Shown: piece by piece, positions 1 through 18,456 of the stretch | How the letters are laid out: every line of letters starts with the position of its first letter | Numbering within the stretch: the first letter of the stretch is position 1 | Assembly: GCA_964634935.1 (NCBI GenBank) | Contig: CAZWJT010000006.1 | Coordinates: 74,189-138,188, forward strand | Source of the DNA: an uncultured Planctomycetia bacterium | Lineage (GTDB): Bacteria > Omnitrophota > Gorgyraeia > Duberdicusellales > Duberdicusellaceae | DNA length: 64,000 nt | Reading direction: 5' to 3' | Program-made: the position numbers and the translations under genes | Notes under the pieces: generated by a model | Databases searched by the model: none | What the model was told of the DNA's origin: nothing | Seen by the model: the letters and a program-made list of their open reading frames with translations, nothing else

Positions 1-179
1 TTTTTACATACGAGACCGGGATATCCCAAGAGGATGGCGTTGCATATGGCAAGTGGGCGCTTACGTGGTTCAAGACGATCATACCAAAAACAACATCAGC
101 TTTTTCCCAACCTGCACGAAATAAAGAGCGTTTTCAATCTATCTGTATTGTTACAGAAAGCGGGCTGAGTGATTGTTTT

Positions 180-3100
180 GTGTATCCGGGCACGGCACTG
201 TTTTTGTCAGGATTTATTTTCTTGCTTTGGATGCTTTGGGCTACCCATCAGCCTCACGGTCCGCCGATCTTACTGCATTCTGACCAAACAAATCTTTCTG
301 TGCATCCAAGCGGAAATTTCATTCCTTCTTCAGTCCGCTTTCGTCTTGATAACTCCTTGCAGATTACCCGTCTTTATGAATATGTGCACTCGATGCGGCA
401 TTTATCCGGAGATCTCTCAAGACTCTTAAACCATATTCGCATTGGCAGCGTTATTGTTATGAAAATTTGTGAACAACTCGCGATGAAAAGGGAAGATGCC
501 GCTCTTGTCCGTGCCGCCTTTGCGCTTCATGATCTTGGAAAGATGCAAAACCAGGAACTATGGAATATTATTCTTTCCGATAAGACATATCCCCGTAAAG
601 ATCCGGATAACCCTGAACGTAGGCTCATTAACCAACATGCAAGATTTTCAGCTGAAATGATTCATGAATTTGGGATGGAAGTTGCTCCTGAGGTTATTTC
701 TTTGGTCCGACAGCACCATACTCCGAAGGAATTAGAGGGTCGGTTGCGCGTTTATGGGGAAATCATCTATTGGGCTGATGTTGTTGATGCCATGGTGGCT
801 AAGCGTTCTTATAAGATCAATCTTGGTACAAGTGATGATTGGGTTATTGAATCCATGGACGATTTGCGTCTGACACTCCAGAAACTCAGGGATTCTAATT
901 TTTCTTCTGCCCGATGTATTCATAAAGAGATTTATACCGCGCTCTGTAGGTTTATTGAAACAGAAGCATTTGCTGCTTTATACCCTCATGTTGATCTATC
1001 AGGGAAAAAACATATTTCAGTCGGAGAATCATCATTCGCGATGATCAACAGGATAGCTCCGTATTTATTTCAAGCTGTAATGCTCTTGCGCAATTTTAAG
1101 CTTGATGGTGTTATTACGCATATTTATATAACCGGTAGTTTTGTCACTGGGGGATGCAGTATCCCTCCCGATGACATTGACTTTGCCGTGAGCATTTCAA
1201 CGAGCCATTTCCGGTATCTCCCTTATTCAAACCAAACAGAGCGCATGGTCAAGGAATTGGAAGAAATTGGTCGTCAGGCACAAGTCAGGTTTCACTTAAC
1301 GCTTGATGCTTTTGGGTATGTGGTTTACCCCGGTCAAGAACTTTCCGTGACCGGACAGATAAGGAATCAAGTACTCGTTGACGCCATGCGAGAGCGCGGA
1401 CAAGATGCGGGGGTATTAATTGATCTAACCAACGCTGATATTGTAAATGGTGATTTTTTCATAGGCCTTTACCAAAAAATTGTAAGCCGCGGTATTGCCG
1501 GTTTAGAAGCATATAAGGCGCAGAGAAAGAATATATTGTTTTCACACTGCCGGATAAATTTAGAAATTATTTTCTTGGTATTTCTTTTTTGTTTCTTCCT
1601 TTTTGCGCACGGACCGAAGTCTGACGCGCATCCGAATTTTCTTTATAGAGCAGCAGAAGAATTAAAACAGTACCAGGCAGTATTAGGGGGGATTGGTCCT
1701 GCGGTCAGTATTTTTGGATCAGCTAGAACTAAAGAACAAGACCAGCAGTTTGCCTTCGCGCAAAGTTTAGCGGAAAGGGTATCCCGGGCCGGATTTTCTG
1801 TGATTACTGGAGGTGGTCCGGGAATTATGATGGCTGCTAACAGCGGAGTTGCTTATGGTAAATTATCGGTTGGCCTGAAAATAGATTTGGCGAAAGAACA
1901 AGTGTTGAATCCATCGGTAAATGCAGTTTTATATTTCAAATACTTTTTCGCCCGCAAAATGACTTTTATCACGGCAAGCGACGCCTTTCTTTGCTGTGTT
2001 GGCGGTTTTGGAACACTCGATGAACTCTTCGAAATTCTGGCGCTAAAAGACAGAGGGTATCTTGGGGATTTTCCGGTTATCTTAACAAACCGTAAGTTTT
2101 ATGATGGACTGATGCATCTTTTGCGAAAGCTTATTTCTTATGGTTTTCTGCGCGGAAGAATCAAGAATTTACTCTTTATCGAGGATGACCCTGAAAAGAT
2201 AGCAGGTTTACTTATCGATTCCGTTTCCCGGGTAAGGAAAAGCCAGAATAATATCGATATTGGAAGAATATTAGTTGAATTTTATCGTGTATTTGTCAAG
2301 CTTGGGCAATTAGGCCCAGCTGCGGGAATCGTCGGTTCGGAATTTATTACAAGCGAAAGTAAAAATTATTACAAAGCACGGCAAATTGCTGAACGTTTAG
2401 CCTTGGCAGATATTTCTCTTATTTGGCGTGGAGGACATGGTGTGGGAGCGGCCGTCTGGGATGGTTTTCAGTCAGCACGGAAGAAAGACCGGAGTGTGAT
2501 GGCAAAGGCTGTTTCTTTATGGATCAGTGAGCGTCCGAATCGCCGCTATCGAGCAACTGGTGATGTGCGGCTTGGATTTCACTATATGTTTGAACAAAAA
2601 ATAGCATTGGTGCGCCATGCGACCAAGGGGTTTATTTTTTTCCCTGGCGGCACTGGCACACTCGACGTGCTTTTTGAAGTTCTCTGTCTTTTGCAGACAG
2701 GGAAAATACCTGCCGTGCCGGTTGTTCTGGTTGACAGGAAATTCTGGGATCCGTGGGATAGGTGGTTTCGCCATGAGCTTGTTCCTCATGAAACTATCTC
2801 CGGAAATGATTTGGATCTTTATCAGATAACCGATAGTCCCCAAGATGCAATTGAGGCTATTTCTCAGGTTCATTACAAGGCACATGCTTTTTTCTGTCCT
2901 CCTTGGTTGGCTCTTATGGTATTCATTATGGTTCTCATATGGAGCGTAGGAAGACGTACGAGTGACCCAACGCATCGGTTGCATTGCCTATTTTCGGGCA
3001 TTCCAGTTTCCAGTACTTTCTTATTGAGTATCGTCGGGGTATTGTTTTTTCTTGGAATCTTTATTGTGTTTTATCGATTCCAAATGGTTCAGTGCAAGCC

Positions 3101-6100
3101 TCGTTCTAAGTTTTTTGAAAACCGCTTTGTGAATGCTCAGGGCAGATTTTTCATTCATCGCTACGGAAAAATAATTAAAAACAAGAAAGGGTATTTTACG
3201 GAGAGTGACCGGAAAGAGCTTTTGAGCTTTCGCGCCCTCTTTGGAGATTTGCGGTCTATAAAATATAGGGCTCGGCATTGTATTGTTTCAGCGAATCAAG
3301 TCTGCGCCTTACTGAAAGGCAAGGGATTTTTCGTGACGAAACGGACAATCTATGCTTATTATGTGCACCATGCGTTCTGCTCGGTGCGTCTGGGAGGAGT
3401 TGATTTTATTCTTGATCTTACTTCCGAGCAATTCGAAGGATATTGGGAAGATTTTGCTAACCGCCCGAAGTTTCTGGGATTGGTTCTAATTCCGGCAGAT
3501 GAGGTATTTGTTCAGAGAGATAAGTTTTTCTTTTATGTTCCCCAGGCCACTGCTTACAATGGTGTGTATGTGGTTTTTGATGCAGATGATTCAGGCCTTG
3601 AACACGGATATCTTGTTGTTTCTGTAGGATCAGAGGTATTGGAAATAAGGCCGCTGGGAGATCGAGATTTTACCAAATATGCTCGGGAGGATATTGATCC
3701 ATTGGTTCGCCAGAAAGCCAAGGAACAAATTCCAACCAGTCTAGAAAATGCGCATCCCGGCTCAGAGAAAACAGCTGTTTTTTGCCTATGGTCTTTTTCT
3801 GTATTCTTGGTTTGCGCGGGTCTCCTTTTGGTATTTTTACCGGCAAAACTGTTTGAGCGCCCGGACGGTATTTGTAATTTTTCAGTACGAAATACCCCCT
3901 ATAAAGGAGCCGTCATTATTATCGGCGGTTCTTCGGGTAGCTTTGATATTATTGAGGCGATCGTAAAAAAAATACGTAGGCCGCATCCGCCCATTGTTAT
4001 TTTAAAACACTGCATCGAACCTTATATTGTTCAGGAAATGATTGAGCGGCTCTCGCTTCGCGGGAAAATCATTGAGCATAACGAAAGGATAGAGCCTTCG
4101 TTTATTTATTTTGCGGTCGAAGGGCGCCATGTAAAATTTACCGAAGATGAATTCGGGTATCGTTTCTTACTTTCTCGACGTTCACAAAGCAGGCTCGGAT
4201 TCGTTCCTTCGATCGACAAGTGTTTTTTCTCCGCCGCAGACGTTATAGGAGAAAAAGTAATCGCTCTTATTTTGAGCGGTTGGGGTAATGACGGGGCGAG
4301 CGGTGTGTTTGTTTTGCGCCAGAAAGGAGCGGTTACTATTGCCCAGCATCCGGAATGTTCGCAAAGGCCGGATATGCCGCTTCACGCAATTTCTTCCGGT
4401 GGCATTACTCATATTTTAAGTCCCTTGGCAATCCGCGATCTTCTTATGCGACAGTCAAGTTCCGGTTTATCCTCCAGCTGTTCGGTTTTTCCTCCATTCG
4501 GATTATTGGTTTTAGTGATTTTTTTCTTGCTTACTCTAGGCAGCTTCGCGCAAAGAAAAGAGAATTATTTCCGAGGTGGCACGGTTGCCCGATCAGAAAC
4601 AATCAGCGCGCGAATCAAGCTGGCAATACAGCAGCGTAGCCTTACGGTTTCTGAATTCACAAAATGCCTTCATCGCCAAATGCGGATGATGGAGCGGGAT
4701 CCAGAAACTACCCCCGAAGCCGTCAGACGTTGGCTTACTGGAGAGCATCATCCGGATATCAAAATAATTCCTGCGTTGGCCGCGACATTAAAAGTAAGTC
4801 CAAGTTGGCTTGTATGCGGTTTGTCTCAACAAGAAGCAATGCGGCAGCCAGTGCTATTGCCAAATGAACAAGAAAAATCAGGATCAAGCCTCGGGAGGCG
4901 TATATTGATTTTACGGTGGATACAAGGAATCACTTCAGTTGAGTTTGCCAAGAAAACAGGAATGAGTCTTGGTAATCTCAACAATATTGAACAGCATCTC
5001 GCAACGTACCCTCGGCCAGCATACCTAGGAAAGATGGCCCAGGTTTTGGGCGTCAGCACTTCGATAATTCTTACTGGTTTTGAGCGCAGCCAGGTAATCG
5101 ATTATTTGCGATATGCCAAAGACAGGTTTCTGTTTCTCAGGTTATGCGCCGGGATGACCCAGGATGAATTATGGGAAAGGCTTGTTGACTCCTATGGGGT
5201 AGATGTCGAAGGAAGGACTACTGTTGCGCAATGGGAGCGCGGCGTGACGCCTCAAGATCTGCGGATACGAAAAGCTCTCAGTAATCTCTACGGGATTTCT
5301 TGGGCTCGTTTAAGCGCCTATAATCCAAGAGGCAGAAGACTCAGTGAATTTATGGAATTAGAAGCGGTGGCACGGATGCGTAACTATTTTGAGAAGATCA
5401 TTGATTCGAATCTTCCAGATTCTTCTATTGTGGTGCGGTTTCCGACGATCGTAAGCGATATTATCATGGCCGATGATCTTGAGTATGATATCAACCCCGT
5501 TGTGAATATGTTATTCGATTTGGTGGCGGAGAATACCGTAGGCGGAAGGGAGATTCGCTTAAGAAAGATAACCCACGCTTTAGATTTCTATCAGAAATTA
5601 TTTCTTTTGCGACCGGGAACCTGGAGATTGCGAGACGAGCGGGCAAAATATTTTGCGAGTGTTGTTTTAAAATCTTTTGTAAACAGGGTAAATCAAGCAG
5701 GGATTGGCAGTAGAGCAACAAAGAAGATAGCCGCCCAAATATTCTGGTCTGATATTGTTGAGTCATTAAGCGGAGGCAGCGGCAATAGGTGTGCAATAAA
5801 ATTTATTGAGGTCCAAAAAGAAAATCAACCATGGTTGAGCCGGAAAGATTTGATTGCCCGCACAGGAGTTTCGCAGTCTTTGCTCAACCGGTACGGGTTT
5901 TCAAATATTGCACTACGTTTGGGTTGGTCGTTGGCTGATTCAGATTCCGATACTCAAGAGTTCTTGAACGGGGCTCAAGGGTTTCGAAGGCGGATTTTTG
6001 ATTTTTACCAGAGGCATCGGCGGTTTCCCAAGAGAGAAAAAGGAGGTTTGCGTGAATCAGATATCTGGGTGATTGAGCTTTCAAAAGCGATGCTGGGAGG

Positions 6101-7598
6101 AAGTCTTGCTATGTTTCGGCTCAGGTTCTTTGAGGATTTTTCTTCAGAGATAAAACTATTCATCAAGCATGCCCGGCCGAGCGTCCAAAAACGCATGTAT
6201 GCAGAATTACTCCGGGTTTTACCATTTGACAGGGATGCTTTAGAATTTTCTTCTGTCGATAAAACTGAGCGGGCCAAAGATGAGGTGCGGATGCGGAAGA
6301 TAATCCCTGATTATGATACAAAGGTGAAAGAATATCACTGGTATGATTGCGCTACGCTTCGAGAACGGGGCATTCAGGATTTATCGACCGCCAGTGATCT
6401 TATCGTCAGTTATGCGGATTTTGGTTCGCTCTCGTCGAAGCAGCTTGCGCGCTTGTGGTTCGAAATGCGCAGGGGTAATACCATCGCTCGCAATTTTATT
6501 ATGGACTCAAACACTGGATTGATTATTTCGTCAGCAAGAGATATCTCTGGACGTTCCATGGCGCGGAATATCAGTCAGGCGGACTTACGCAATGAAGGAT
6601 GGTTTGGATTGCGTGTTGCCGCGGAACGATTTGATCCTTCTCGAGGTACAAAATTTTCTACGTATGCAATGTGGTGGATCATGCAAGCGCAAACAAGACT
6701 ATGTCTATATGGAGGAAGAACGATACGGGCAGATCCCGCCCTCGTCAATCGTTTTTATCGGCTCCAACAGAAAATGACTGAACTCGATAACGCTCCAGAG
6801 CAGCAGAAAGGCCGCAGGACTTACGCAATTATTTATGAAAAAACCAAGCGGGAATTTGAAAAATTACGCTGGTTCTTGCAGGGAGCGTTAAACACGAAAT
6901 CGTTGAATGATTCGGTGGGCTCTGATGAGGAGGGCACTTTGTTCTCGGAATTTGTTGAAGATGTTAAATCTGAGGATCCGGAAGATGCTGCAGGGGTGTT
7001 TGATGAGCGTGAATTTGTCAGAGATTGTCTTGCTCAAATACCAGATGAAAGAGATCGGCGGATTCTTGAGCTGCGCTATGGGGTAAAACCGCCTACTTCC
7101 GCAGAGTGGCAGATACTGCAAGAAAAAAAACCAAAGCTTGAATGCAATCCTTTCACCAGTTGGCCAAAGGGACGGGATCATCTGACTTTAGAGGAGGCCG
7201 GCTTAATTTATGGTATTACCCGCGAACGCATCCGGCAGGTTGGCAACAGAGCAGAAGATGTCTTTGCTGCTATCGTTTGTGCAAACCGGCGGCGGTTTTA
7301 CACAATAAAAGATTTGTCTGAAGAAAGAAATCTTGAATGTTTCTGTCCATTGCCGACGGTCATTGTAATCATTCTTTCATTATTTCTGGCGGCACAAGGA
7401 ATGTTTTTTACGGTTACAGAAGCATCATGCCAGCAGATTGCGCCATGGTGGAACCAGCGATCCGGAATGATGCATAGGAATATACGGGGGAAGGATTGTA
7501 ACCAATTTCTCAGGCGCAATAAGAGGGGTATCAGGTTGCCAGACAAAACACTTTATGAATTTTCCCTGGTGCCTGAGCATAAGCAGAAAAATAATTGA
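180..7598 (+). CDS. Giant multidomain signalling protein (at least 2472 aa; the frame stays open back to window position 3, so the true start may lie upstream of the window). Domain order: HD-GYP-like, minimal NTase, 2x LOG/SLOG, TM cluster, unknown domain, TM, CheB-type methylesterase, TM, 3-4 HTH_XRE, sigma-70 r2-r3-r4, C-terminal TM.
   Basis: Six-frame track shows one ORF of 2472 codons. My own translation of 3..179 in the same frame finds no stop. By-eye motifs: VHSMRH...ALHDLGK...RQHHTP...ADVVDAMVAKRSYK (HD-GYP family, GYP lost). ITGSFVTGGCSIPPDDIDF (GS-x11-DxD minimal nucleotidyltransferase). SIFGSAR...ITGGGPGIMMAANSG...SDAFLCCVGGFGTLDELFE and RGGHGVGA...FFPGGTGTLDVLFEVL (two LOG / Lysine_decarbox-like Rossmann domains). 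VIIIGGSSGSFD...PIVILKHC...LSGWGNDGASG...TIAQHPECSQRPDMPLHAI (CheB methylesterase, Ser/His/Asp present). Several XRE-like helix-turn-helix segments. IARNFIMDS...FSTYAMWWIMQAQTR and ILELRYGV...LTLEEAGLIYGITRERIRQ (sigma-70 regions 2 and 4). Confidence 0.6.
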   Translation: MYPGTALFLSGFIFLLWMLWATHQPHGPPILLHSDQTNLSVHPSGNFIPSSVRFRLDNSLQITRLYEYVHSMRHLSGDLSRLLNHIRIGSVIVMKICEQLAMKREDAALVRAAFALHDLGKMQNQELWNIILSDKTYPRKDPDNPERRLINQHARFSAEMIHEFGMEVAPEVISLVRQHHTPKELEGRLRVYGEIIYWADVVDAMVAKRSYKINLGTSDDWVIESMDDLRLTLQKLRDSNFSSARCIHKEIYTALCRFIETEAFAALYPHVDLSGKKHISVGESSFAMINRIAPYLFQAVMLLRNFKLDGVITHIYITGSFVTGGCSIPPDDIDFAVSISTSHFRYLPYSNQTERMVKELEEIGRQAQVRFHLTLDAFGYVVYPGQELSVTGQIRNQVLVDAMRERGQDAGVLIDLTNADIVNGDFFIGLYQKIVSRGIAGLEAYKAQRKNILFSHCRINLEIIFLVFLFCFFLFAHGPKSDAHPNFLYRAAEELKQYQAVLGGIGPAVSIFGSARTKEQDQQFAFAQSLAERVSRAGFSVITGGGPGIMMAANSGVAYGKLSVGLKIDLAKEQVLNPSVNAVLYFKYFFARKMTFITASDAFLCCVGGFGTLDELFEILALKDRGYLGDFPVILTNRKFYDGLMHLLRKLISYGFLRGRIKNLLFIEDDPEKIAGLLIDSVSRVRKSQNNIDIGRILVEFYRVFVKLGQLGPAAGIVGSEFITSESKNYYKARQIAERLALADISLIWRGGHGVGAAVWDGFQSARKKDRSVMAKAVSLWISERPNRRYRATGDVRLGFHYMFEQKIALVRHATKGFIFFPGGTGTLDVLFEVLCLLQTGKIPAVPVVLVDRKFWDPWDRWFRHELVPHETISGNDLDLYQITDSPQDAIEAISQVHYKAHAFFCPPWLALMVFIMVLIWSVGRRTSDPTHRLHCLFSGIPVSSTFLLSIVGVLFFLGIFIVFYRFQMVQCKPRSKFFENRFVNAQGRFFIHRYGKIIKNKKGYFTESDRKELLSFRALFGDLRSIKYRARHCIVSANQVCALLKGKGFFVTKRTIYAYYVHHAFCSVRLGGVDFILDLTSEQFEGYWEDFANRPKFLGLVLIPADEVFVQRDKFFFYVPQATAYNGVYVVFDADDSGLEHGYLVVSVGSEVLEIRPLGDRDFTKYAREDIDPLVRQKAKEQIPTSLENAHPGSEKTAVFCLWSFSVFLVCAGLLLVFLPAKLFERPDGICNFSVRNTPYKGAVIIIGGSSGSFDIIEAIVKKIRRPHPPIVILKHCIEPYIVQEMIERLSLRGKIIEHNERIEPSFIYFAVEGRHVKFTEDEFGYRFLLSRRSQSRLGFVPSIDKCFFSAADVIGEKVIALILSGWGNDGASGVFVLRQKGAVTIAQHPECSQRPDMPLHAISSGGITHILSPLAIRDLLMRQSSSGLSSSCSVFPPFGLLVLVIFFLLTLGSFAQRKENYFRGGTVARSETISARIKLAIQQRSLTVSEFTKCLHRQMRMMERDPETTPEAVRRWLTGEHHPDIKIIPALAATLKVSPSWLVCGLSQQEAMRQPVLLPNEQEKSGSSLGRRILILRWIQGITSVEFAKKTGMSLGNLNNIEQHLATYPRPAYLGKMAQVLGVSTSIILTGFERSQVIDYLRYAKDRFLFLRLCAGMTQDELWERLVDSYGVDVEGRTTVAQWERGVTPQDLRIRKALSNLYGISWARLSAYNPRGRRLSEFMELEAVARMRNYFEKIIDSNLPDSSIVVRFPTIVSDIIMADDLEYDINPVVNMLFDLVAENTVGGREIRLRKITHALDFYQKLFLLRPGTWRLRDERAKYFASVVLKSFVNRVNQAGIGSRATKKIAAQIFWSDIVESLSGGSGNRCAIKFIEVQKENQPWLSRKDLIARTGVSQSLLNRYGFSNIALRLGWSLADSDSDTQEFLNGAQGFRRRIFDFYQRHRRFPKREKGGLRESDIWVIELSKAMLGGSLAMFRLRFFEDFSSEIKLFIKHARPSVQKRMYAELLRVLPFDRDALEFSSVDKTERAKDEVRMRKIIPDYDTKVKEYHWYDCATLRERGIQDLSTASDLIVSYADFGSLSSKQLARLWFEMRRGNTIARNFIMDSNTGLIISSARDISGRSMARNISQADLRNEGWFGLRVAAERFDPSRGTKFSTYAMWWIMQAQTRLCLYGGRTIRADPALVNRFYRLQQKMTELDNAPEQQKGRRTYAIIYEKTKREFEKLRWFLQGALNTKSLNDSVGSDEEGTLFSEFVEDVKSEDPEDAAGVFDEREFVRDCLAQIPDERDRRILELRYGVKPPTSAEWQILQEKKPKLECNPFTSWPKGRDHLTLEEAGLIYGITRERIRQVGNRAEDVFAAIVCANRRRFYTIKDLSEERNLECFCPLPTVIVIILSLFLAAQGMFFTVTEASCQQIAPWWNQRSGMMHRNIRGKDCNQFLRRNKRGIRLPDKTLYEFSLVPEHKQKNN
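380..810 (+). other. HD-GYP-like phosphohydrolase domain (degenerate GYP motif) inside the giant ORF
   Basis: HS..H, HDLGK, HHTP and ADVVDAMVAKRSYK line up with the conserved HD-GYP blocks HDIGK / HHE.WDGSGYP / ADVFDALTS.RPYK; the GYP tripeptide is replaced (TPKELEG). Confidence 0.55.
1110..1450 (+). other. Minimal nucleotidyltransferase (Pol-beta superfamily) domain inside the giant ORF
   Basis: ITGSFVTGGCSIPPDDIDFAV fits the hG[GS]-x9-13-DhD signature. Confidence 0.5.
1700..2760 (+). other. Two tandem LOG/SLOG (PF03641-like, TIGR00730-like) Rossmann domains inside the giant ORF
   Basis: GGGPGIMMAANSG + CVGGFGTLDELFE (copy 1, about 1700-2110) and GGHGVGAAV + FPGGTGTLDVLFEVL (copy 2, about 2415-2760). 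Confidence 0.6.
3905..4440 (+). other. CheB-type methylesterase/glutaminase-like domain, flanked by predicted TM helices, inside the giant ORF
   Basis: IGGSSGSF (cf. IGASTGGP), PIVILKH (cf. PIVIVQH), LSGWGNDGASG (cf. LTGMGRDGAAG), TIAQHPECSQRPDMPLHAI (cf. TIAQDEATCVVYGMPREAI). Hydrophobic stretches precede it (AVFCLWSFSVFLVCAGLLLVFL) and follow it (FGLLVLVIFFLLTLGSFA). Confidence 0.6.
4590..5330 (+). other. Three consecutive XRE-family helix-turn-helix modules inside the giant ORF (a fourth HTH-like segment sits near 5830-5910)
   Basis: Repeated pattern of the form L....R...G.T..E.A...G.S...L...E.G (e.g. RSLTVSEFTKCL..., ILRWIQGITSVEFAKKTGMSLGNLNNIEQ, LRLCAGMTQDELWERLVDSYGVDVEGRTTVAQWERG). 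Confidence 0.45.
6400..7260 (+). other. Sigma-70 family module (regions 2, 3 and 4) at the C-terminal part of the giant ORF
   Basis: Region 2.x: NEGWFGLRVAAERFDPSRGTKFSTYAMWWIMQAQTR (cf. FSTYATWWIRQAI). Region 4: RRILELRYGV...LTLEEAGLIYGITRERIRQVGNRA. Confidence 0.6.
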
Positions 7599-7647
7599 TC
7601 CGTGTATTTTGATATTATTTAGTGCTATATTCAAAATGTAAATTATA

Positions 7648-8436
7648 ATGGTACCAGAGAAAACAGTGGATGAGATAAAAGGTATAAACTCGAAACGGGG
7701 TTTTTTAACTACCCCGGATCAGGTAGATATTTCTTACGTTCATTACTCAAGTGGCCGGAGGAAAAAAGCGGTAGTTATTGCTCACGGTTTTTTTAATAGT
7801 AAGAATTCCCCGCTTCTGCAGGTTCTAAAAGACGCGCTTATCTCTGAGTATGATGTGATTTTGTTTGATTTTCGGGGGCATGGAGAAAGTTCGGGGCTGT
7901 TTACCTGGACTTCCCATGAGTCGCTCGATCTACGAGCGGTTTTGCAATATGCGCAGAGTCATTATTCTATCCTTGGTCTCATTGGTTTTTCTCTGGGTGC
8001 TGCAACGAGCATTAACGTGCTTGCGAAGTATGATTGTGTTCAAAGTTTTATTTCCATCAGTGCCCCTGGCAGTTTTTGGGGTATCGATTATCATTTCTGG
8101 GCTTTGAATTTTGAGAACGATCTTTTCTATACTTTTGGCAGAGAAGGAAGAGCGGGGAAAGGAGTGCGTCCTGGGCCATTCTGGCTTAGAAAAGAAAAGC
8201 CGATCAAGAATATAGAAAGTATCCATTGTCCTGTTTGTTATATTCACGGAGAAAAAGACTGGGTCATCTTACCATATCATTCCCAGAGATTATTTTCTAG
8301 AACGAAAACCCAGAAGGTATTTCACGTTATTCCTAATGGTTTTCACGCTGAGTATCTATTGCGCCAGCAGCGTGAAATAATCATAGATTCCGTATGCCGT
8401 TGGCTTACCGAAACGCTTCATGAAGGAGGTGTATGA
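7648..8436 (+). CDS. alpha/beta-fold hydrolase
   Basis: AVVIAHGFFNS...RGHGESSG...GFSLGA (nucleophile elbow GxSxG). A TATAAT sits 7 nt upstream at 7636-7641. Confidence 0.7.
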   Translation: MVPEKTVDEIKGINSKRGFLTTPDQVDISYVHYSSGRRKKAVVIAHGFFNSKNSPLLQVLKDALISEYDVILFDFRGHGESSGLFTWTSHESLDLRAVLQYAQSHYSILGLIGFSLGAATSINVLAKYDCVQSFISISAPGSFWGIDYHFWALNFENDLFYTFGREGRAGKGVRPGPFWLRKEKPIKNIESIHCPVCYIHGEKDWVILPYHSQRLFSRTKTQKVFHVIPNGFHAEYLLRQQREIIIDSVCRWLTETLHEGGV

Positions 8437-8774
8437 TGGAGGGGTTTGGAGTAGAAAAACGCATGTTTCATCGGTTTCCTTGCGCTATGGGCAGTGTGTC
8501 CGTACGTAACCTGCAGCGTGATTTCGAAAGCAGCGGTCGATGTGTTGATCTTTCTGCTGGCGGGATCAGCTTTGAAACTGAGAAGGTTTTTTTCCCGGGT
8601 GATCCTGTCGAAATCTGGATGGATTTAAAGAACAACCTTTCCTCTTTCCAGCAGGGCGGGAAAGTAGTTTGGGCAAAGCGTATGTATCCTGAAAAATTCC
8701 GGATTGGTATTGAGTTTCAGGAACCCCAACTTACCAAGATTCATCAATTGGTTGAAGGTATTTGTAACTCGTAA
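8433..8774 (+). CDS. PilZ-domain protein (c-di-GMP receptor family)
   Basis: RMFHRFP ... DLSAGGISFE resembles the PilZ RxxxR ... D/NxSxxG motifs. Its ATGATGG start overlaps the upstream stop (translational coupling). Confidence 0.55.
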   Translation: MMEGFGVEKRMFHRFPCAMGSVSVRNLQRDFESSGRCVDLSAGGISFETEKVFFPGDPVEIWMDLKNNLSSFQQGGKVVWAKRMYPEKFRIGIEFQEPQLTKIHQLVEGICNS

Positions 8775-8791
8775 TCTGAAATATTAAGTTA

Positions 8792-8819
8792 TTGAATTAA
8801 ATAATACTTATGGTATAAT
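8792..8819 (+). promoter_or_regulatory. Sigma-70-like promoter TTGAAT-16-TATAAT upstream of the ABC transporter operon
   Basis: ttgaat(8792-8797) ... tataat(8814-8819), followed by AAGGAGG and ATG 8872. Confidence 0.4.
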
Positions 8820-8871
8820 TTCCACCATATTGTCTACCCTCTAATAGCCATCTAGCATGAAGGAGGACGGG

Positions 8872-10167
8872 ATGAGAAATATCTTCTCTGTGGCGGTAAG
8901 TTGTATAATTTTACTGTGCGGATGTTCATCGGAACAACCCTCCCAAAAATCCTCAGCTCGAGAAATAACAGTATGGTATTGGATGGTTGATCGTAAGCAG
9001 GCCTTTGAGGAATTAGCCAAGAAATATGAACAGGAAACCTCAGTCAAGGTCAATTTTAAACTGTTTTCTTCAGATATCTATGCGCAAAAAGTCATTGCTG
9101 CCGCCCGGGCAGGAAGTCTTCCGGAAATTTTCGGCATTCTTGGTGAAAAGAAGATGCTCGCCTCTTTTATCAAAGCCAACCATATTTTAGATTTAACGCC
9201 CTATATGCTGAAGGATTCTTCGGCGTGGAAGAAACGTTTCTATCCTCAAGTTTTAGGGCAGAATTCTTTTGAGAAAAATAATATATACGAAGTGCAGGAA
9301 GGAATTTATGGCGTGCCGATAGATATGATGAATATTCAATTTCTCTACAATCGGGAATTGTTTCAAAAGGCGGGGCTTAACCCGAATCAGCCTCCGGTTA
9401 CTTTTGAAGATTTCATTCAGTATGCTCGTTTGGTGAAGGAGAAGACAGGGGCAAAAGGGTTTGCGTGCGGTTGGGGAGAAGTCTGGCTTATGTCATGTGT
9501 TTTTTCTGAATGGGCGATGAATCTCCTCGGAGAAGATATTTTTCATAAAACGATTCAAGGAAAAATACCGTATACGAGCCCTCAATGGATTGAAGTATTT
9601 AGTCTTTTTGACAGACTGCGCCAAGAAGATGTGCTTCTGCCTAATATTGTAAGCACTATTAATAAAGAAGCTGAGCAGTATTTTGCTGACGGGAAATCCG
9701 CGTTTTCATTTGACGGCAGCTGGTGTATTAACATCTATCAGGAGTTAAATCCCAAGCTTTCCTACGGAGCGTTCCCTTTGCCGATCGTATCAACAAAATT
9801 TCCAATAAGGATCTGGGGCGGTGCTGGCAGTTCTTTTATGGTAAGTGCCATAAGTCCTCAAAAAGAAGAAGCGGTGCTGTTTCTTGCATGGCTGACAAAA
9901 CCAGAACAGCAAAAATATCTTATCCAATCTACCCGGAATCTTCCGGCGATTCAGGGATGCGAAGATACTTTTTCTGAGGCAATGAAGGAATTTGCCAATG
10001 ATGCCGATAAAATCACCCATCCTAATATCTGGCCGAAACAGGAAGATTCCCGGGTAACCGAGGTGATTATTAAGGGGTTGCAGCAGATTGTGATGGGCAT
10101 CACCACCCCGGAAAAAGTCGCTGAAGAAGTCCAGAAAGCAAAGGAGCGGATTGAGAAACAGCAATGA
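8872..10167 (+). CDS. ABC transporter substrate-binding lipoprotein (sugar family)
   Basis: Lipobox LLCGCSS after a hydrophobic N-terminus; size about 430 aa; followed by two MalF/MalG-like permeases; RBS AGGAGG before ATG 8872 (the ORF track starts at an earlier ATG, 8857). Confidence 0.8.
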   Translation: MRNIFSVAVSCIILLCGCSSEQPSQKSSAREITVWYWMVDRKQAFEELAKKYEQETSVKVNFKLFSSDIYAQKVIAAARAGSLPEIFGILGEKKMLASFIKANHILDLTPYMLKDSSAWKKRFYPQVLGQNSFEKNNIYEVQEGIYGVPIDMMNIQFLYNRELFQKAGLNPNQPPVTFEDFIQYARLVKEKTGAKGFACGWGEVWLMSCVFSEWAMNLLGEDIFHKTIQGKIPYTSPQWIEVFSLFDRLRQEDVLLPNIVSTINKEAEQYFADGKSAFSFDGSWCINIYQELNPKLSYGAFPLPIVSTKFPIRIWGGAGSSFMVSAISPQKEEAVLFLAWLTKPEQQKYLIQSTRNLPAIQGCEDTFSEAMKEFANDADKITHPNIWPKQEDSRVTEVIIKGLQQIVMGITTPEKVAEEVQKAKERIEKQQ

Positions 10168-11051
10168 GAAAAGACCTGCTTAAGGAAACAACGATAAGCT
10201 ATTCCTTTATCTTCCCCGCGGTATTTTTGTTCACTATTTTCTATATCTACCCGCTTTTCTATACGCTTTGGCTGAGTTTGCACCGGGGGGATGCTATTTC
10301 GTATATGAAGTTTGTTGGTCTTGCAAATTTTCAGGAAATACTTTTCCAAGACAAAGACTGGTGGCGTTCGATTTATAATGCAGGATTTATTACATTTTGG
10401 GCATTAACATTCCAGAATATCCTTGCGTTTGTTTTGGCGCTCGGCGTCGATAAGGCAATACGTCTGGGTAAACTTTACCGGGTTGTTTTTTTTATTCTGC
10501 CAATTCTTTCTGAGATTATCATCGGGCTTCTGATGCGTGAGATTCTTTTGTCTGAGCCGGGCATTTTCAATAAGCTTCTGTCAAACGTTGGGCTAGGTTT
10601 TGTTATCCGCGATTGGCTTAGTTCAGGAAATGTTCTGCTTACTACAGCTCTTGTGCATTGTTGGAAAGGATTTGGCTGGGCATTTGTGATTTTTCTCGCA
10701 GGTTTACAATCAATCCCCGCACAGCTCTATGAGGCAGCTCGAGTTGATGGAGCAAACGCTTGGCAAAGTTTTCTGAAGGTGACCTTGCCGCTTATGATTC
10801 CGGTAACTGCTATGGTTTTTGTTTTGACTATCCTTGGTACTATGCAGGCATTTGCCATGATTCTTGCTTTAACCCGAGGCGCAGGAGGTCTCACTGAGGT
10901 TCCGGTTATGCGCATCTACAACCATCTAAAAGACGGACAAGTCGGGTTTGCATGTGCTGAAGGGGTTATCCTTGGGGCACTCCTTGTTTTTGTTTCGTTC
11001 GTGATGTTCAAATTCTCGAAAGCGGTGCGAGAAAAGTATGGTGTATTATAA
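10164..11051 (+). CDS. ABC transporter permease (MalF-like, sugar)
   Basis: Six-TM profile; EAA-like loop AARVDGANAWQSFLKVTLP. Confidence 0.85.
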   Translation: MRKDLLKETTISYSFIFPAVFLFTIFYIYPLFYTLWLSLHRGDAISYMKFVGLANFQEILFQDKDWWRSIYNAGFITFWALTFQNILAFVLALGVDKAIRLGKLYRVVFFILPILSEIIIGLLMREILLSEPGIFNKLLSNVGLGFVIRDWLSSGNVLLTTALVHCWKGFGWAFVIFLAGLQSIPAQLYEAARVDGANAWQSFLKVTLPLMIPVTAMVFVLTILGTMQAFAMILALTRGAGGLTEVPVMRIYNHLKDGQVGFACAEGVILGALLVFVSFVMFKFSKAVREKYGVL

Positions 11052-11877
11052 GGCAAAAAAAATAGCATTACTTGTCATTATTCATACATTTCTTTTGAGT
11101 GTGGCTTTAAGCTGCGTCTATCCGCTTGTCTGGATGATTAATGCATCGTTCAAAACCGAACATGAATTTCGGCAAGATCAAGGTCTTTCTTTTGCTCAGG
11201 GTTTCAATCTTTCCAACTATGGAACTGCGTTGCGCGAAGGGAATCTCGGGATCAATTTTCTCAATAGCGTTTTTTATACATTTATAACTGTTACTTCCAT
11301 TGTATTTGTTTCTGCTCTTGCAGCATACGCATTCTCGCGTCTTAAATTTCCCGGGAAAAATATTCTTTTCGGAATGTTCCTTGCGGCAATGATGATACCA
11401 CTACCTGCCGGGTTTGTTCCAGTCTATATTTTGCTCAACAAGCTTCATCTTGTAAATAGAATTGGGTATGTTTTTGCAATGGTCAATATGGGGCTTTCCT
11501 TAAGTATCTATCTTTTGAAGACTTTTTTTGACCAGCTTCCTTCGGCGCTTGAAGATGCTGCCAGGATTGACGGATGCGGACATTTTGGGGTCTGGTGGCA
11601 TGTTGCTTTGCCGCTTGTCCGGCCAGCGTTAGCAGTAGTGGTTATTTTTAATGCGCTCACAGTTTGGAACGAATTTGTGCTTGCCTCGCTTATGTTTAAT
11701 AGTGAAACGCTCATGCCGCTTCAGGTTGGTTTGATGGAATTCTATAATCGGAATGTTATCCAGCATACATTACTTATGGCTTCGCTCACGATCGGGGCTG
11801 TTCCGATAATCCTTGTATATCTGAAGATGCAGAAACAGATTATCAAGGGTATTACCCAGGGAGCTTTGGTAGGATGA
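11038..11877 (+). CDS. ABC transporter permease (MalG-like, sugar)
   Basis: EAA loop DAARIDGCGHFGVWWHVALPLVRP; overlaps the upstream permease. Confidence 0.85.
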   Translation: MVYYKAKKIALLVIIHTFLLSVALSCVYPLVWMINASFKTEHEFRQDQGLSFAQGFNLSNYGTALREGNLGINFLNSVFYTFITVTSIVFVSALAAYAFSRLKFPGKNILFGMFLAAMMIPLPAGFVPVYILLNKLHLVNRIGYVFAMVNMGLSLSIYLLKTFFDQLPSALEDAARIDGCGHFGVWWHVALPLVRPALAVVVIFNALTVWNEFVLASLMFNSETLMPLQVGLMEFYNRNVIQHTLLMASLTIGAVPIILVYLKMQKQIIKGITQGALVG

Positions 11878-14162
11878 AGGAACTTTTTTCTTTAATACAT
11901 TGTCTAAGAAGTAGAATGATAAAGCAATGCGTGTTTATTGTGGCTTGTTTTCTGGTGTTTTTACCAGCGCTTCTTGCTCAGTCTGATTCTTCGGAATATC
12001 TTACAAAAGCTTGGGAAGCGCTGGGAAAGCGTAATTTTGAAGAAGTTGCACAGTTGACTGCGCGCTGTGCCCAAGAATTTGGCCCTCAGGCTGATTTGCT
12101 TGCGCAAGGTATGACGAAAATACCTGAGCAGGAGGAATCAAAATACAAGGTATTGAATGATGTCGCAGTGTGCTATTTTGTTCAAGGCGAGTCTTTAATG
12201 CGCCAAGGGAAAATTGAAGAGGCAAAGGAGGTTTTTCGAACACTTATCGGGAAATACCCCTATGCATCTGGTTGGGATCCGCGCGGTTGGTTCTGGTCAG
12301 TAAAGGAGAAGGCGGAGATCACTCTCACTAAACTCGAGAAAGGCGTGATTGAAGAGGACAATATTGAGAAAAATATTGTTATCACGCAGATTACCCTTGC
12401 TGATCCGGGAGCTTCACTGCCAATTGAATATGAGAAATTTGGTCAATTCAAAGGGGTTGGGACAAAAGACTATGAGTTTATGGTTACTGATATGGAGGGT
12501 TTAGTGAAGGCTGCGGGGGAAGGCGTTTATCCAAACTCGACCTCGGTACGCTATGATCCAGAGTTTGTGCGGATGAAAAATAACAAGGAATTGCAAGCAA
12601 AGCATTGGGATATTTTGAATGGCAGGGATTTGAAGAAAGCGTTCTATATTTGGAATATTTGCGGAGAGCCAGCGGGCATTAAACAGTTTTATATCGGAGA
12701 TCTTCTTGAACGGAGTGGTCTTATCGAACAAGCAGTCAAAGCGTACTATGCCTGTCTTGTATTTTTTCCTCGCACCTACGGTTGGACATATTGGCATACA
12801 CCGTGGTATATAGCTGAAGCAGCTCTTGCCCGTATTGAGTATCTATTAAGTACTTTCCCGCATCTTGGTTTAAGACTTGAAGGGGCTTCGGTAAAGATTG
12901 TAAACGGTTTTGACTACGATGTTTCAAACGATGTTTTTGTTATTAATCCTGGTAAGATTGTGCGAAGCGAATCTTTGAATTCTGATATTCGTAAGAAGCT
13001 GGGAGCTGTTCAGAAGAGCGTTGGTACAACGGTGCGTCTTGTACAGTATGAATCAGGCGATTGGCAGCTTTTTGTCCACGATAAACCGTTTATTGTTAAA
13101 GGCATTACATATGCTCCGACAAGGGTAGGAGAGAGCCCGGATGAGGGTACTCTTGCGAATTGGACAGAGCAGGACACAAATAAAAACGGACTTATTGATG
13201 GTCCATTTGATACCTGGGTTGACAAAGATTATAATGGAAAGCAGGATCCTGGCGAGGAAATACAAGGTGATTTTAAGTTACTCAAAGATATGGGGGTCAA
13301 TGCATTACGGGTATACCATCAACCAGCAGAGCCTAATAAAAAACTTTTTAAAACTCTTTACGAAAATTATGGTATAATGGTTATTATGGCTGATTTCCTC
13401 GGAAAATATGCGATTGGAAGTGGTGCTTCTTGGTCCGAAGGAACAAACTATTCCGACTTAAAACATCAAGAAAATATGTTGAGTTCTGTTCGAAAAATGG
13501 TTCTTGAGTACAAAGATGAGCCCTATATTCTTTTTTGGTTGCTCGGGAATGAAAATGTTTATGGGGTTGCCTGTAACGCGAACAAAGATCCGGAGAGCTT
13601 CTTTAAATTTGCGAACAAGGCAGCGCAACTGATTAAAGAGCTTGACCCTACGCGTCCGGTGGCAATTGCCAGCGGTGATGTTTTGTATCTTGATATTTTT
13701 GGGAAACACGCACCCGATATTGATATTTTTGGTACGAATGCTTATCGGGGTAAATATGGTTTTGGTTTCATCTGGGATCAGGTAAAAGAATTTGCCAATA
13801 AGCCGTGCTTGATTACTGAATATGGTGCTCCAGCCTATGGAGAGGGTTATTCCGCTCAAGAAGCTGAAGATTTCCAGGCGGAATATCACCGTGCTAATTG
13901 GGCTCATATTATGCGCAATTCTTGTTGTCAAGGAGCGGGAAACGCCTTAGGAGGGATTGTTTTCGAGTGGCTTGATGAATGGTGGAAGGCTTATGAGCCG
14001 GCATACCATGACAGAAAAGGTCTTTTTACCGGGCCATTCTTAGATGGTTTTATGCACGAAGAGTGGCTTGGGCTTGTTTCTCAGGGTGATGGAAAAAATT
14101 CCCCGTTTTTAAGAAAATTAAGAAAAGCATATTTCACCTACCAGAATATCTGGAAAAACTGA
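11874..14162 (+). CDS. Secreted TPR-containing protein with C-terminal clan GH-A-like TIM-barrel glycosidase domain
   Basis: Signal peptide; KGITYAP...NALRVYH...LLGNENVYG...ITEYGAPAYGE...FEWLDEWWK; paralogous to the 15480..16706 product. Confidence 0.6.
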   Translation: MKELFSLIHCLRSRMIKQCVFIVACFLVFLPALLAQSDSSEYLTKAWEALGKRNFEEVAQLTARCAQEFGPQADLLAQGMTKIPEQEESKYKVLNDVAVCYFVQGESLMRQGKIEEAKEVFRTLIGKYPYASGWDPRGWFWSVKEKAEITLTKLEKGVIEEDNIEKNIVITQITLADPGASLPIEYEKFGQFKGVGTKDYEFMVTDMEGLVKAAGEGVYPNSTSVRYDPEFVRMKNNKELQAKHWDILNGRDLKKAFYIWNICGEPAGIKQFYIGDLLERSGLIEQAVKAYYACLVFFPRTYGWTYWHTPWYIAEAALARIEYLLSTFPHLGLRLEGASVKIVNGFDYDVSNDVFVINPGKIVRSESLNSDIRKKLGAVQKSVGTTVRLVQYESGDWQLFVHDKPFIVKGITYAPTRVGESPDEGTLANWTEQDTNKNGLIDGPFDTWVDKDYNGKQDPGEEIQGDFKLLKDMGVNALRVYHQPAEPNKKLFKTLYENYGIMVIMADFLGKYAIGSGASWSEGTNYSDLKHQENMLSSVRKMVLEYKDEPYILFWLLGNENVYGVACNANKDPESFFKFANKAAQLIKELDPTRPVAIASGDVLYLDIFGKHAPDIDIFGTNAYRGKYGFGFIWDQVKEFANKPCLITEYGAPAYGEGYSAQEAEDFQAEYHRANWAHIMRNSCCQGAGNALGGIVFEWLDEWWKAYEPAYHDRKGLFTGPFLDGFMHEEWLGLVSQGDGKNSPFLRKLRKAYFTYQNIWKN

Positions 14163-14233
14163 ATGCCAAGATATTGATTGCGAAAGAGGAAGAGTTGTTA
14201 CGCAGAATACATAGGCAAAAAGAAGGGGGTAGT

Positions 14234-15406
14234 ATGAGAAAAATAATTTCATTGAGTCTGGTTTTGTTCTTGTGCAGTATCGGGTCGCTTTTTGCTCAGG
14301 CAGTAAGCCCAGAAGGCGCACAAGATGTAAAGAAGTTCGATGTGTACACGGATAAGGCTTCGCCATCGAACCATTACGCTCCAAGCGGATGGATGGGTGA
14401 TGTGGGCGATCTTTCTCTTGATGATCAGAATATGGAAAGTCCTTATTCTGGTTCTACCGCAATCAAAATCACCTATTCGGCAAAAAGAGTTCAAAGCAAA
14501 GGTTGGGCAGGAATCTACTGGCAGAATCCGGCGAACAACTGGGGTAACCGCAAAGGCGGTTTTGATTTAACCGGATACAATAAACTTATTTTCATGGCCA
14601 AAGGTGCCCAAGGCGGAGAGGTGCTTTCTAAGGTGAAAGTTGGCGGTATTGGAGCAACGGGCGATGTTCCTTATCCTGATTCAGCAGAGAAAGAGTCAGG
14701 ACCGATCCAGCTCACCAATGAGTGGAAAGAGTATGTCGTGAATCTCACCGACAAAGACCTTTCTTATATCAGCGGGGGATTTGCTGTTATTTTTGAGGCC
14801 GACCAGAATCAAGCAGGCGCAGAAATATTTTTAGACGATGTTGCCTTTGTATTTGACCCGGACTTAAAAGCTGAAAAGAATGAGATTTCCTTTCCTTTCT
14901 ATATTTATTCAGACGGAGGGTCTTTGGATAACCATTTCATTCCTTCCGGATGGATGCCGGCCACAGCAGCACAAGACATCAAGTTTAACCAATACGAGAA
15001 GACCGCTCCTTACTCTGGAACGAGCGCCATCCGTATTGATTACAAAGATGTTTCTGGTACTCGCTGGGCAGGAATCTACTGGCAGAATCCCGCAGAAAAC
15101 TGGGGCGCCAAAGATGGGGGCATTAATCTTACCGGAGCAACAAAGCTTACTTTCTGGGCTCGCGGAGAAAAGGGCGGAGAAAGAATAGAAGAAGTCAAGG
15201 TAGGCGGTATTATGGGGCAGTATTCTGACTCAGATTCCGCTGGCATTGGTCCAGTTGTGCTCACGAAAGAGTGGAAACAATATACGATTGATTTACGCGG
15301 CAAAGATTTAAATTCAATCATCGGTGGTTTCTGTTGGGCGACAAATACCGACGTAAATCCTGAAGGAGCGACATTCTATTTTGACGAAATAAAATACGAG
15401 AAATAA
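14234..15406 (+). CDS. Secreted protein with two tandem about 165-aa carbohydrate-binding-module-like repeats
   Basis: Signal peptide MRKIISLSLVLFLCSIGSLFAQA. Internal duplication: SPYSGSTAIKITYS...WAGIYWQNPANNWG...KVGGIG versus APYSGTSAIRIDYK...WAGIYWQNPAENWG...KVGGIMG. Confidence 0.7.
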   Translation: MRKIISLSLVLFLCSIGSLFAQAVSPEGAQDVKKFDVYTDKASPSNHYAPSGWMGDVGDLSLDDQNMESPYSGSTAIKITYSAKRVQSKGWAGIYWQNPANNWGNRKGGFDLTGYNKLIFMAKGAQGGEVLSKVKVGGIGATGDVPYPDSAEKESGPIQLTNEWKEYVVNLTDKDLSYISGGFAVIFEADQNQAGAEIFLDDVAFVFDPDLKAEKNEISFPFYIYSDGGSLDNHFIPSGWMPATAAQDIKFNQYEKTAPYSGTSAIRIDYKDVSGTRWAGIYWQNPAENWGAKDGGINLTGATKLTFWARGEKGGERIEEVKVGGIMGQYSDSDSAGIGPVVLTKEWKQYTIDLRGKDLNSIIGGFCWATNTDVNPEGATFYFDEIKYEK

Positions 15407-15412
15407 TAAACG

Positions 15413-15460
15413 GAAGGCCCTCGGTAGAAGCTTTTTCTACCGGGGGCCTTTTCTCTGTTT
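15413..15460 (+). terminator. Rho-independent terminator
   Basis: GGCCCTCGGTAGAAgctttTTCTACCGGGGGCC hairpin followed by TTTTCTCTGTTT. Confidence 0.65.
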
Positions 15461-15479
15461 ATGCATAAACTATAAGTGT

Positions 15480-18336: not shown

Positions 18337-18427
18337 GCTTTTCGAAGAACCCGATAGATACCTTCCCGACGCGAACTGATTTCTAGATTGCCCAGAAAAA
18401 ATTTCTACAACTATTTCCAAAAATGTA

Positions 18428-18456
18428 TTGCAATTGAAAATTATCTTTGCTAAAAT
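18428..18456 (+). promoter_or_regulatory. Sigma-70-like promoter TTGCAA-17-TAAAAT
   Basis: Lies in the 140-bp AT-rich gap ahead of ATG 18478. Confidence 0.4.

Follow-up and report, generated by a model that had tools for sequence, protein, structure and literature searches.

Sigma factors are, in the textbook account, free and exchangeable subunits of RNA polymerase (RNAP). Sigma factors fused to membrane helices are known only among groups 36, 48, 52 and 53 of the extracytoplasmic function (ECF) type, for which release by proteolysis is expected (PMC8999054), and the classical case of a membrane-associated sigma precursor activated by a protease is pro-sigma-K (PMC6242693). Giant genes have been described in Omnitrophota, and cleavage of the giant proteins has already been proposed (West-Roberts et al. 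2023, 10.1101/2023.11.21.568195). A catalogue of 916 long proteins recognizes multi-enzyme metabolic clusters as one class ('class 1'), a co-occurrence module centred on the regulatory domains methyltransferase, HATPase, GNAT, HAD and HD, and, in the Omnitrophota long proteins, roughly one helix per 370-1000 residues (Nielsen & Lui 2026, 10.64898/2026.06.07.730766). Sigma-70 or XRE helix-turn-helix (HTH) modules are mentioned neither in the texts of these two studies nor in one supplement. Here we describe such modules from a bacterium of apparently Omnitrophota type, in a 64,000-nucleotide stretch of contig CAZWJT010000006.1 (hereafter the window, numbered from its first letter): three XRE-type HTH domains, a helical region and a sigma-70 module form a cassette within a very long multi-module open reading frame (ORF) on the forward strand, to which all features below belong unless noted.

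A sigma-70 module joined to three HTH domains

The cassette occupies positions 4590-7295 and encodes about 900 aa in one frame, comprising three XRE HTH domains, a helical region of approximately 370 aa and the sigma-70 module. A first-pass annotation of the window had placed XRE HTHs and a sigma-70 module in a single frame at 4590-7300, and both are indeed there. Of the three to four HTH domains that it had counted, three were recovered by Pfam HTH_3 (positions 4590-5315; aa ~1471-1545, 1565-1635 and 1645-1712; three stretches, E 2.8e-16, 59.7 bits against a cutoff of 23); a fourth, an HTH-like helix trio near aa 1885-1915, appears in the AlphaFold2 (AF2) model only and has no support from a hidden Markov model (HMM). 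The AF2 model of the cassette has a mean pLDDT (predicted local distance difference test score) of 71, with values of 85-90 in the HTH domains and about 65 in the middle region. This middle region (5322-6428; aa 1715-2083) is all helix in the model, matches no Pfam family and no fold in the PDB (best E 0.64), and is kept in all members of the cassette family. Together the HTHs and the helical region amount to ~610 aa, which stand in place of sigma region 1.1 and the non-conserved region.

The sigma-70 module (6429-7295) carries regions 1.2, 2 and 4 and a putative region 3, with region 2 at 6525-6689 and region 4 at 7044-7253. Scoring against the Pfam models, a check proposed in the first-pass annotation, supported regions 2 and 4 of what it had called a complete module: Sigma70_r2 scored 38.5 bits (cutoff 24) and Sigma70_r4 30.9 bits (cutoff 24.1), while region 3 stayed under its cutoff but was aligned through SigA region 3. 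Among the NCBIfam sigma models only TIGR02937, for the sigma-70 superfamily, was passed (68.4 bits against 42.9); the top ranks were held by RpoD, SigA and RpoS models, all far under their equivalog cutoffs, and the scores for RpoD_Cterm (109.7 bits against 354) and PRK05658 (101.7 against 555) set the module apart from housekeeping RpoD/SigA. When the PDB was searched with phmmer, aa 2084-2303 aligned without large gaps to regions 1.2-4.1 of group-1 SigA proteins (E 2e-26); region 4.2 resumed after an insertion of 31 aa (7089-7181), which parts regions 4.1 and 4.2 and forms a gap in the PDB alignments. The same insertion is present in L004, L005, L003, L001 and P0016, homologous loci and proteins described below, and constitutes a signature of the family. 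Foldseek, run on the AF2 cassette model, returned sigma factors only. On these matches the module is a putative divergent sigma factor with the architecture of groups 1-3, and neither an ECF sigma nor a housekeeping RpoD.

The alignments to PDB entries also revealed which motifs are kept, namely DLxxEGxxGLxxAxERFD, KFSTYAMWWIMQAQTR, KFSTYAxWWIxQAxTR, RTIR and TRERIRQ, and both they and the AF2 model retain the acidic linker of region 3.2. The window copy preserves the -10 and -35 recognition residues, as the first-pass annotation had asked to be examined; in E. coli sigma-70 numbering we take these to be the equivalents of Y430, W433, W434, Q437, T440 and R441 for the -10 element and of R584, E585, R588 and Q589 for the -35 element. 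In sigma-70, the residues at these positions are those that melt and recognize the -10 element and those that recognize the -35 element. Within the cassette family, TRERIRQ, which belongs to the -35 reading part, is near-invariant.

The cassette lies within one very long frame

Inspection of the ORF list and of the translation revealed a single stop-free frame from position 1 to the stop codon at 7596-7598, in which at least 2531 codons are visible. The ORF list starts this frame at a GTG at position 180 (180-7598); translation of positions 3-260, however, keeps the frame open up to the window start. The 59 codons at positions 3-179 were scored for codon usage and gave +6.2 bits in the frame of the ORF, against -11.3 and -15.9 bits in the other two frames, where the reference values are a mean of 10.4 (SD 7.3) for in-frame windows of the giant ORF and a maximum of 3.5 off-frame. 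Since the frame is open from position 3 and its codon usage there is that of a coding frame, the window holds only the C-terminal part, of at least 2531 aa, of a longer gene. An exact-sequence look-up of the 2472-aa product found no match; the record of the gene probably has a different start or is truncated.

All domain matches of the giant ORF share this one forward frame over 7.6 kb. A contig from an independent Logan short-read assembly (L007; run SRR12133403), which begins at window position 2920, is 99.97% identical over 2920-18436 and has the same open frame. The first in-frame start codon downstream of the helix that precedes the cassette (helix 6, below) is at aa 1501, inside the first HTH domain, and lacks a Shine-Dalgarno sequence. 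No start codon with a Shine-Dalgarno sequence was found in frame at the starts of the modules, that of the cassette included, a search of limited power because Shine-Dalgarno use is weak across the genome. The cassette is predicted to be translated as part of the long chain, in view of the continuous frame and of the absence of a usable internal start codon. The first-pass annotation had considered a membrane-tethered sigma factor; the locus does not encode a dedicated protein of that kind, and the cassette is one among several modules of a very long ORF resembling those of Omnitrophota.

Distribution and conservation of the cassette

Relatives of the cassette are few. An exhaustive HMMER search of 1.84 billion cluster representatives returned only 6 proteins below 1e-30, and a pattern scan of the GTDB representative genomes found 3 cassette loci. 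An alignment-based scan of JGI metagenome contigs yielded no further cassette, and single-protein pattern scans of genome contigs and metagenome contigs yielded no relative. A word-index search with the full ORF gave just two weak matches to the CheB domain, and one with the HTH domains plus the middle part gave just P0004. The homologs are labelled as Omnitrophota/Omnitrophica metagenome-assembled genomes (MAGs), and the closest, L004 (CAZRVK010000003.1), as 'uncultured Planctomycetales bacterium'; either this bin has probably been assigned wrongly or its label is a coarse one.

Wherever the DNA is readable, the cassette lies inside a long open frame. That of L004 has at least 6272 codons and extends beyond the fetched locus; L005, a locus of 15.5 kb, is open throughout (5170 codons); in L003, 2440 open codons extend from the contig start; in L001 the frame continues past the contig end; and that of L008 is already open at the contig start and ends 30 aa past region 4. 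L006 has an open frame of 2154 codons that ends within sigma region 3 (segment L006:4063-6462), and none of the frames downstream encodes region 4. Because this contig has a coverage of only about 1.3x, the truncation is unreliable and may reflect either a decayed copy or an assembly problem. The neighbours of the cassette are different each time: the C-terminus of an acetate kinase (AckA) plus helices; PPDK and HAD; HAD, response regulator, PCMT and GNAT; alpha/beta-hydrolase, methyltransferases and amylase. Homology within the family is sharp-edged, beginning about 15 aa after helix 6 of the window ORF and ending just before its helix 7. The cassette is apparently a rare, mobile and conserved unit.

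L004 was taken as the orthologous locus on account of the PilZ, solute-binding and permease genes that lie downstream of its giant ORF as they do in the window (27-52% identity). It keeps the CheB domain, a helix and the cassette in one frame, with 64% identity over 1134 aa, and these three are all that the two ORFs have in common (window 3915-7295, L004:9305-12739), the other modules being different. Identity reaches its cassette maximum of 81% in sigma regions 1.2-2 and is 69-71% in regions 3 and 4, 54-77% over the three HTH domains (76-77% in the second and third), 64% in the helical region, 53% in CheB and 21-24% in the linkers; the syntenic ABC-transporter genes, at 50-52%, are less conserved than the cassette. 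This pattern indicates a functional module under strong purifying selection. From it, and from the conserved core-binding, -10 and -35 residues, we infer that the sigma module is a genuine specificity subunit of RNAP.

The conservation of the CheB-cassette block also hints at a functional link between the two, which would come to lie on opposite sides of the membrane if helix 6 spans it.

Hydrophobic helices, linkers and topology

A Kyte-Doolittle scan of the giant ORF identified seven strong hydrophobic helices, each single and each between soluble modules. The first-pass annotation had described a membrane-embedded polytopic protein; helices do flank the cassette on both sides (helix 6, 4485-4541, aa 1436-1454, peak 2.4; helix 7, 7338-7394, aa 2387-2405, peak 2.45), but a dedicated polytopic protein is not what the scan revealed. 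Helix 6 keeps its position in L004 but not its sequence (24% identity), and a hydrophilic linker takes the place of helix 7 there. By the same kind of scan, 15 helices were counted in the 6271 aa of L004 and 11 in the 5170 aa of L005, against 7 in the 2531 aa of the window.

Four Lys/Arg residues directly follow helix 6 and five directly precede helix 7. Because these flanks fit the positive-inside rule, the cassette would be cytoplasmic and held at both ends. The number of helices between the HD-nucleotidyltransferase pair, the LOG pair, CheB and the cassette is odd, and all of these are cytoplasm-type modules; if the chain stayed uncut and each helix crossed the membrane, they could not all be in the cytoplasm. 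It follows that the chain is cut, or that some helices do not span, or that some of the enzyme-like modules act outside the cell.

Repeated elements were found in the linkers of two relatives. P0003 (L001:10001-14394) has three copies of the motif RRSPSG (aa 257, 1183 and 1428), all of them at boundaries between modules and with the cassette flanked on either side; none of the five other long ORFs that were checked has it. In L005 a linker element of about 40 aa, visible in both DNA and protein, recurs at least 6 times between modules, once right after the cassette. At the DNA level it corresponds to a 110-nt repeat in 6 copies of 65-81% identity (1339-1448, 2242-2351, 4435-4544, 6190-6299, 7063-7172 and 12760-12869), with an upstream part of 106 nt in 3 copies (4324-4429, 6952-7057 and 14863-14968). 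The repeat encodes SGDTILNSKVPNRAGSQQGQSPKSGDSPC, the hydrophilic SGDTILN...SPC part, followed by LLAIAGIAxLEIIASSFGAPGAG(V/F)ACAxAPxAAG. This succession of helix, Gly-Pro turn and short helix might form a re-entrant hairpin, serve as a site of processing or mark a joint at which modules are shuffled by recombination. No DNA-level repeat was found in the linkers of the window. The linkers, alike within a genome and different between genomes, would seem closer to recognition sites or to joints of recombination than to passive spacers.

A post hoc pattern was also noticed in the window: all seven hydrophobic linkers carry a Cys either at the start of the hydrophobic core or no more than about 8 residues N-terminal of it (SSSCSVFPPFG, ECFCPLP, FFCPPW and SDCFVYPG are examples), where the overall Cys frequency is 1.5%. 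In L004 a Cys lies near only 3-4 of 13 helices.

A proposed mechanism and its alternatives

The reading that we tentatively prefer is a membrane-anchored precursor that holds a genuine sigma factor and from which this factor is freed by cutting of the linkers. The cassette would be translated within the long precursor, which the hydrophobic helices between modules would hold at the cytoplasmic membrane with the cassette on its cytoplasmic face, as the flanks of helices 6 and 7 suggest. The sigma module would serve as the specificity subunit of RNAP, in keeping with its conserved residues and the purifying selection on them. Proteolysis of the linkers could then free an active sigma factor or regulator, in the manner of pro-sigma-E and pro-sigma-K or of the membrane-fused ECF sigma factors, with the three HTH domains and the helical region possibly contributing contacts to DNA or to a partner. 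Such processing is hinted at by the RRSPSG copies of P0003, by the recurring linker element of L005 and by the odd helix count, and it accords with the cleavage already proposed for the giant proteins and with the existence of membrane-fused ECF sigma factors. Several observations weigh against this reading. No free-standing copy of the cassette was found among the 1.84 billion representatives, in the GTDB genome scan or in the metagenome contigs. Neither a protease domain nor a cleavage motif nor an anti-sigma gene was detected in the visible ORF or the downstream genes examined, and a site-2 protease gene, which along with a nearby anti-sigma gene had been suggested as worth looking for, was likewise absent from those genes. 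No linker motif is common to the family members. Nor are the bounding helices a constant feature: helix 7 has no counterpart in L004, and no helix precedes the cassette in P0003, P0004 or L006; since these other members are bounded by non-hydrophobic linkers, flanking by helices is not a conserved property of the cassette. Within the sigma module, Sigma70_r3 scored 14.1 bits, under its cutoff of 25.3, yet the PDB alignment runs unbroken through this region; the positions equivalent to the extended -10 readers are altered; and the equivalents of W433 and Q437 vary among family members.

The main rival, somewhat unlikely in our estimation, is that the cassette is never released and acts while part of the membrane-anchored chain, bringing RNAP and specific promoters to the membrane; transcription, translation and insertion might then, with no greater probability, be co-localised, for example for the giant gene itself or for neighbouring genes. 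The absence of a family-wide cleavage motif and of a nearby protease fits such tethered action, as does the helix between CheB and the cassette, which stays in place in L004. Both termini of sigma factors are surface-exposed in holoenzymes, so that long tethers are sterically conceivable, and ToxR and CadC are precedents of membrane-bound transcription activators. The L004 cassette, however, lies more than 3300 aa from the visible N-terminal end of its ORF and about 2000 aa from the C-terminal end, a very big load for a subunit that has to cycle on and off RNAP; several members lack a helix adjoining the cassette; and the linker motifs repeated within a genome look more like sites to be recognized than like passive tethers. 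Less probable still is that the long ORFs of Omnitrophota encode true bacterial polyproteins, in which the genome-specific linker elements (the helices with a nearby Cys in the window, the 40-aa LLAIAG...GAPGAG...ACAAAP element in L005 and RRSPSG in P0003) would be processing sites and the cassette would be excised only upon insertion and processing of the precursor. If this were true, a dedicated transcription programme would be coupled to the assembly of a giant membrane machine.

We regard as improbable that the sigma fold has been exapted as a DNA-binding or RNAP-sequestering regulator, to which the three XRE HTH domains would give specificity and the sigma part would contribute a decoy or anti-RNAP module or a DNA clamp. 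The unusual layout, with three HTH domains and a 370-aa region N-terminal of sigma, would suit such a regulator, as would the insertion within region 4, the weakness of region 3, the variable W433, Q437 and T440 equivalents and the L006 copy that ends in region 3. Mere exaptation is nevertheless argued against by the strong conservation of the RNAP-binding and promoter-binding motifs: regions 1.2-2, responsible for core binding and -10 recognition, are the most conserved part of the cassette, the -35 reading motif hardly varies, and the acidic region 3.2 linker is retained; the poor coverage of its contig, moreover, deprives the L006 truncation of weight. Finally, separate genes for CheB, an XRE regulator and sigma might have been joined by an assembly or sequencing error or by the genetic code assumed. 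Unrelated cytoplasm-type domains do share one frame here, and the T-rich hydrophobic stretches between them superficially look like translated intergenic DNA. A fusion by sequencing error, which the first-pass annotation had raised as a possibility, is ruled out because the independent L007 assembly is identical to 99.97% and also open and because L004 keeps the same frame. In addition, the frame is free of stops over its whole 7.6 kb, neither start codons nor Shine-Dalgarno sequences mark the beginnings of the modules, five more loci, each from a different MAG, have the cassette within open frames that range from 2154 codons to more than 6272, and ORFs of this kind are known from complete Omnitrophota genomes assembled from long reads. 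On the evidence of these frames we consider an artefactual origin effectively refuted.

The cassette offers a concrete, readily assayable handle on whether the giant proteins of Omnitrophota are cut or act as one chain: the activity of a sigma factor can be tested clearly, through holoenzyme formation and initiation at specific promoters, and so can its size. If functional, the cassette would represent a new way to regulate or localise a sigma factor, and it might reveal a regulon tied to the giant proteins of these nanobacteria, which live as episymbionts or predators.

Other modules of the frame and neighbouring genes

The visible part of the very long ORF (1-7598) begins with hydrophobic helix 1 (189-245; aa 4-22; Kyte-Doolittle peak 1.7), followed by an HD phosphohydrolase domain (447-794; Pfam HD, E 2e-11) and a nucleotidyltransferase-like DUF6932 domain (1089-1337), whose Pfam score of 24.5 bits is just under the cutoff. 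Helix 2 (1554-1610; aa 459-477; peak 2.3) leads to two tandem LOG/TIGR00730 (Lysine_decarbox) domains (1611-2885), which gave two stretches in Pfam (E 6e-48) and 167 bits, above the cutoff, with TIGR00730. Helices 3 and 4 (2886-3071; aa 903-921 and 946-964; peaks 2.2 and 2.8) precede a module of 235 aa (3072-3776; aa 965-1199) with no Pfam match at E<=1. Helix 5 (3777-3833; aa 1200-1218; peak 2.5), which is not at this position in L004, separates that module from a CheB-type methylesterase domain (3915-4439; Pfam CheB_methylest, E 3.6e-31) that lacks a receiver domain. After the cassette and helix 7, the ORF ends in a basic tail of 67 aa without a Pfam match, the tail and the stop codon occupying 7395-7598. 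The tandem LOG/TIGR00730 domains, which are cytokinin-riboside-phosphate hydrolase-like, adjoin the HD and nucleotidyltransferase-like pair, and all of these are modules of a nucleotide-signalling type. Elsewhere in the 64-kb window, no paralogs of the giant-ORF modules were found, and the window contains no rRNA.

Downstream, positions 7648-18336 encode an alpha/beta-hydrolase, a PilZ-domain protein, an ABC sugar transporter (a solute-binding protein and two permeases) and GH2-like glycosidases, and a ROK/NagC-type regulator follows at 21417-22604; the part from the hydrolase to the permeases is syntenic with L004. None of the three sizeable ORFs at 14174-15406 (410 aa), 16681-18336 (551 aa) and 18478-21411 (977 aa) matched an NCBIfam model at E<=1e-5. 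Nearly all ORFs of at least 150 aa in the window (1-64000) are on the forward strand, GC skew is positive in every 2-kb bin and the cumulative skew climbs steadily; from this strand bias and steady skew, the window appears to lie within one replichore.

Comparison with known systems

MzaA, of the MZA anti-phage system, resembles the locus in being a large protein of the sigma-70 family with a long non-sigma N-terminal part, and gave a weak match (90.6 bits with NCBIfam, 45.6 with PADLOC); this match spans the generic sigma region only, far under the cutoff of 800 bits, and the genes around the ORF include no Mza partner and give no sign of a defence locus. A defence-system assignment was likewise set aside, as PADLOC gave generic domain-level matches only.

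Pro-sigma-E and pro-sigma-K of Bacillus share with the proposed mechanism an inactive membrane-associated precursor that a membrane protease activates. They differ in having a short N-terminal pro-peptide, cleaved by SpoIIGA or SpoIVFB, whereas here both ends of the cassette are extended and no such protease or pro-sequence is evident. The ECF sigma factors with transmembrane fusions (ECF48/52/53, such as SCO4117, and ECF36) are alike in that sigma is covalently joined to membrane helices in one polypeptide. Those, however, are dedicated group 4 proteins of a few hundred residues, with sigma2 and sigma4 only, a zinc-finger anti-sigma-like domain and an extracytoplasmic sensor; the module described here has region 1.2 and a putative region 3 and sits in a multi-enzyme chain of several thousand amino acids, which places it outside the ECF type, and neither a zinc-finger (ZAS) nor an anti-sigma domain was detected in the visible ORF with Pfam or NCBIfam. 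Sigma-70 factors of groups 1 and 2 (RpoD/SigA and RpoS) have regions 1.2, 2.1-2.4, 3 and 4 in the canonical order that the module, with its putative region 3, follows too, and provide the best PDB and NCBIfam matches; unlike them, the module is not free-standing, carries the insertion in region 4, is altered at the extended -10 positions and falls far under the equivalog cutoffs.

The long multi-enzyme proteins of Omnitrophota (Gorgyraeia) are the remaining term of comparison. The catalogue admits proteins of at least 10,000 aa, and both the visible part in the window (at least 2531 codons) and L004 (at least 6272) are partial. Unlike such proteins, the visible part contains no C39, S8 or SecA-like domain. 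As in them, many unrelated Pfam domains tile one chain with no repeat dominating: the distinct families here are HD, nucleotidyltransferase-like, two LOG, CheB, three HTH_3 and sigma regions 2 and 4, and the chains of L004 and L005 are multi-family in the same way. Scattered single helices recur at about 1 per 360 aa (7 in 2531), in line with the 2% or more of residues taken as the mark of such proteins, regulatory and signalling modules (HD, GNAT, methyltransferase and response regulator) are present, and the homologs other than L004 come from MAGs labelled Omnitrophota. What is new here is the predicted occurrence of a group-1/2-like sigma factor and three HTH domains as a conserved cassette inside multi-enzyme ORFs of several thousand residues, at which two known kinds of protein meet, the membrane-tethered sigma-70 factors and the giants of Omnitrophota.

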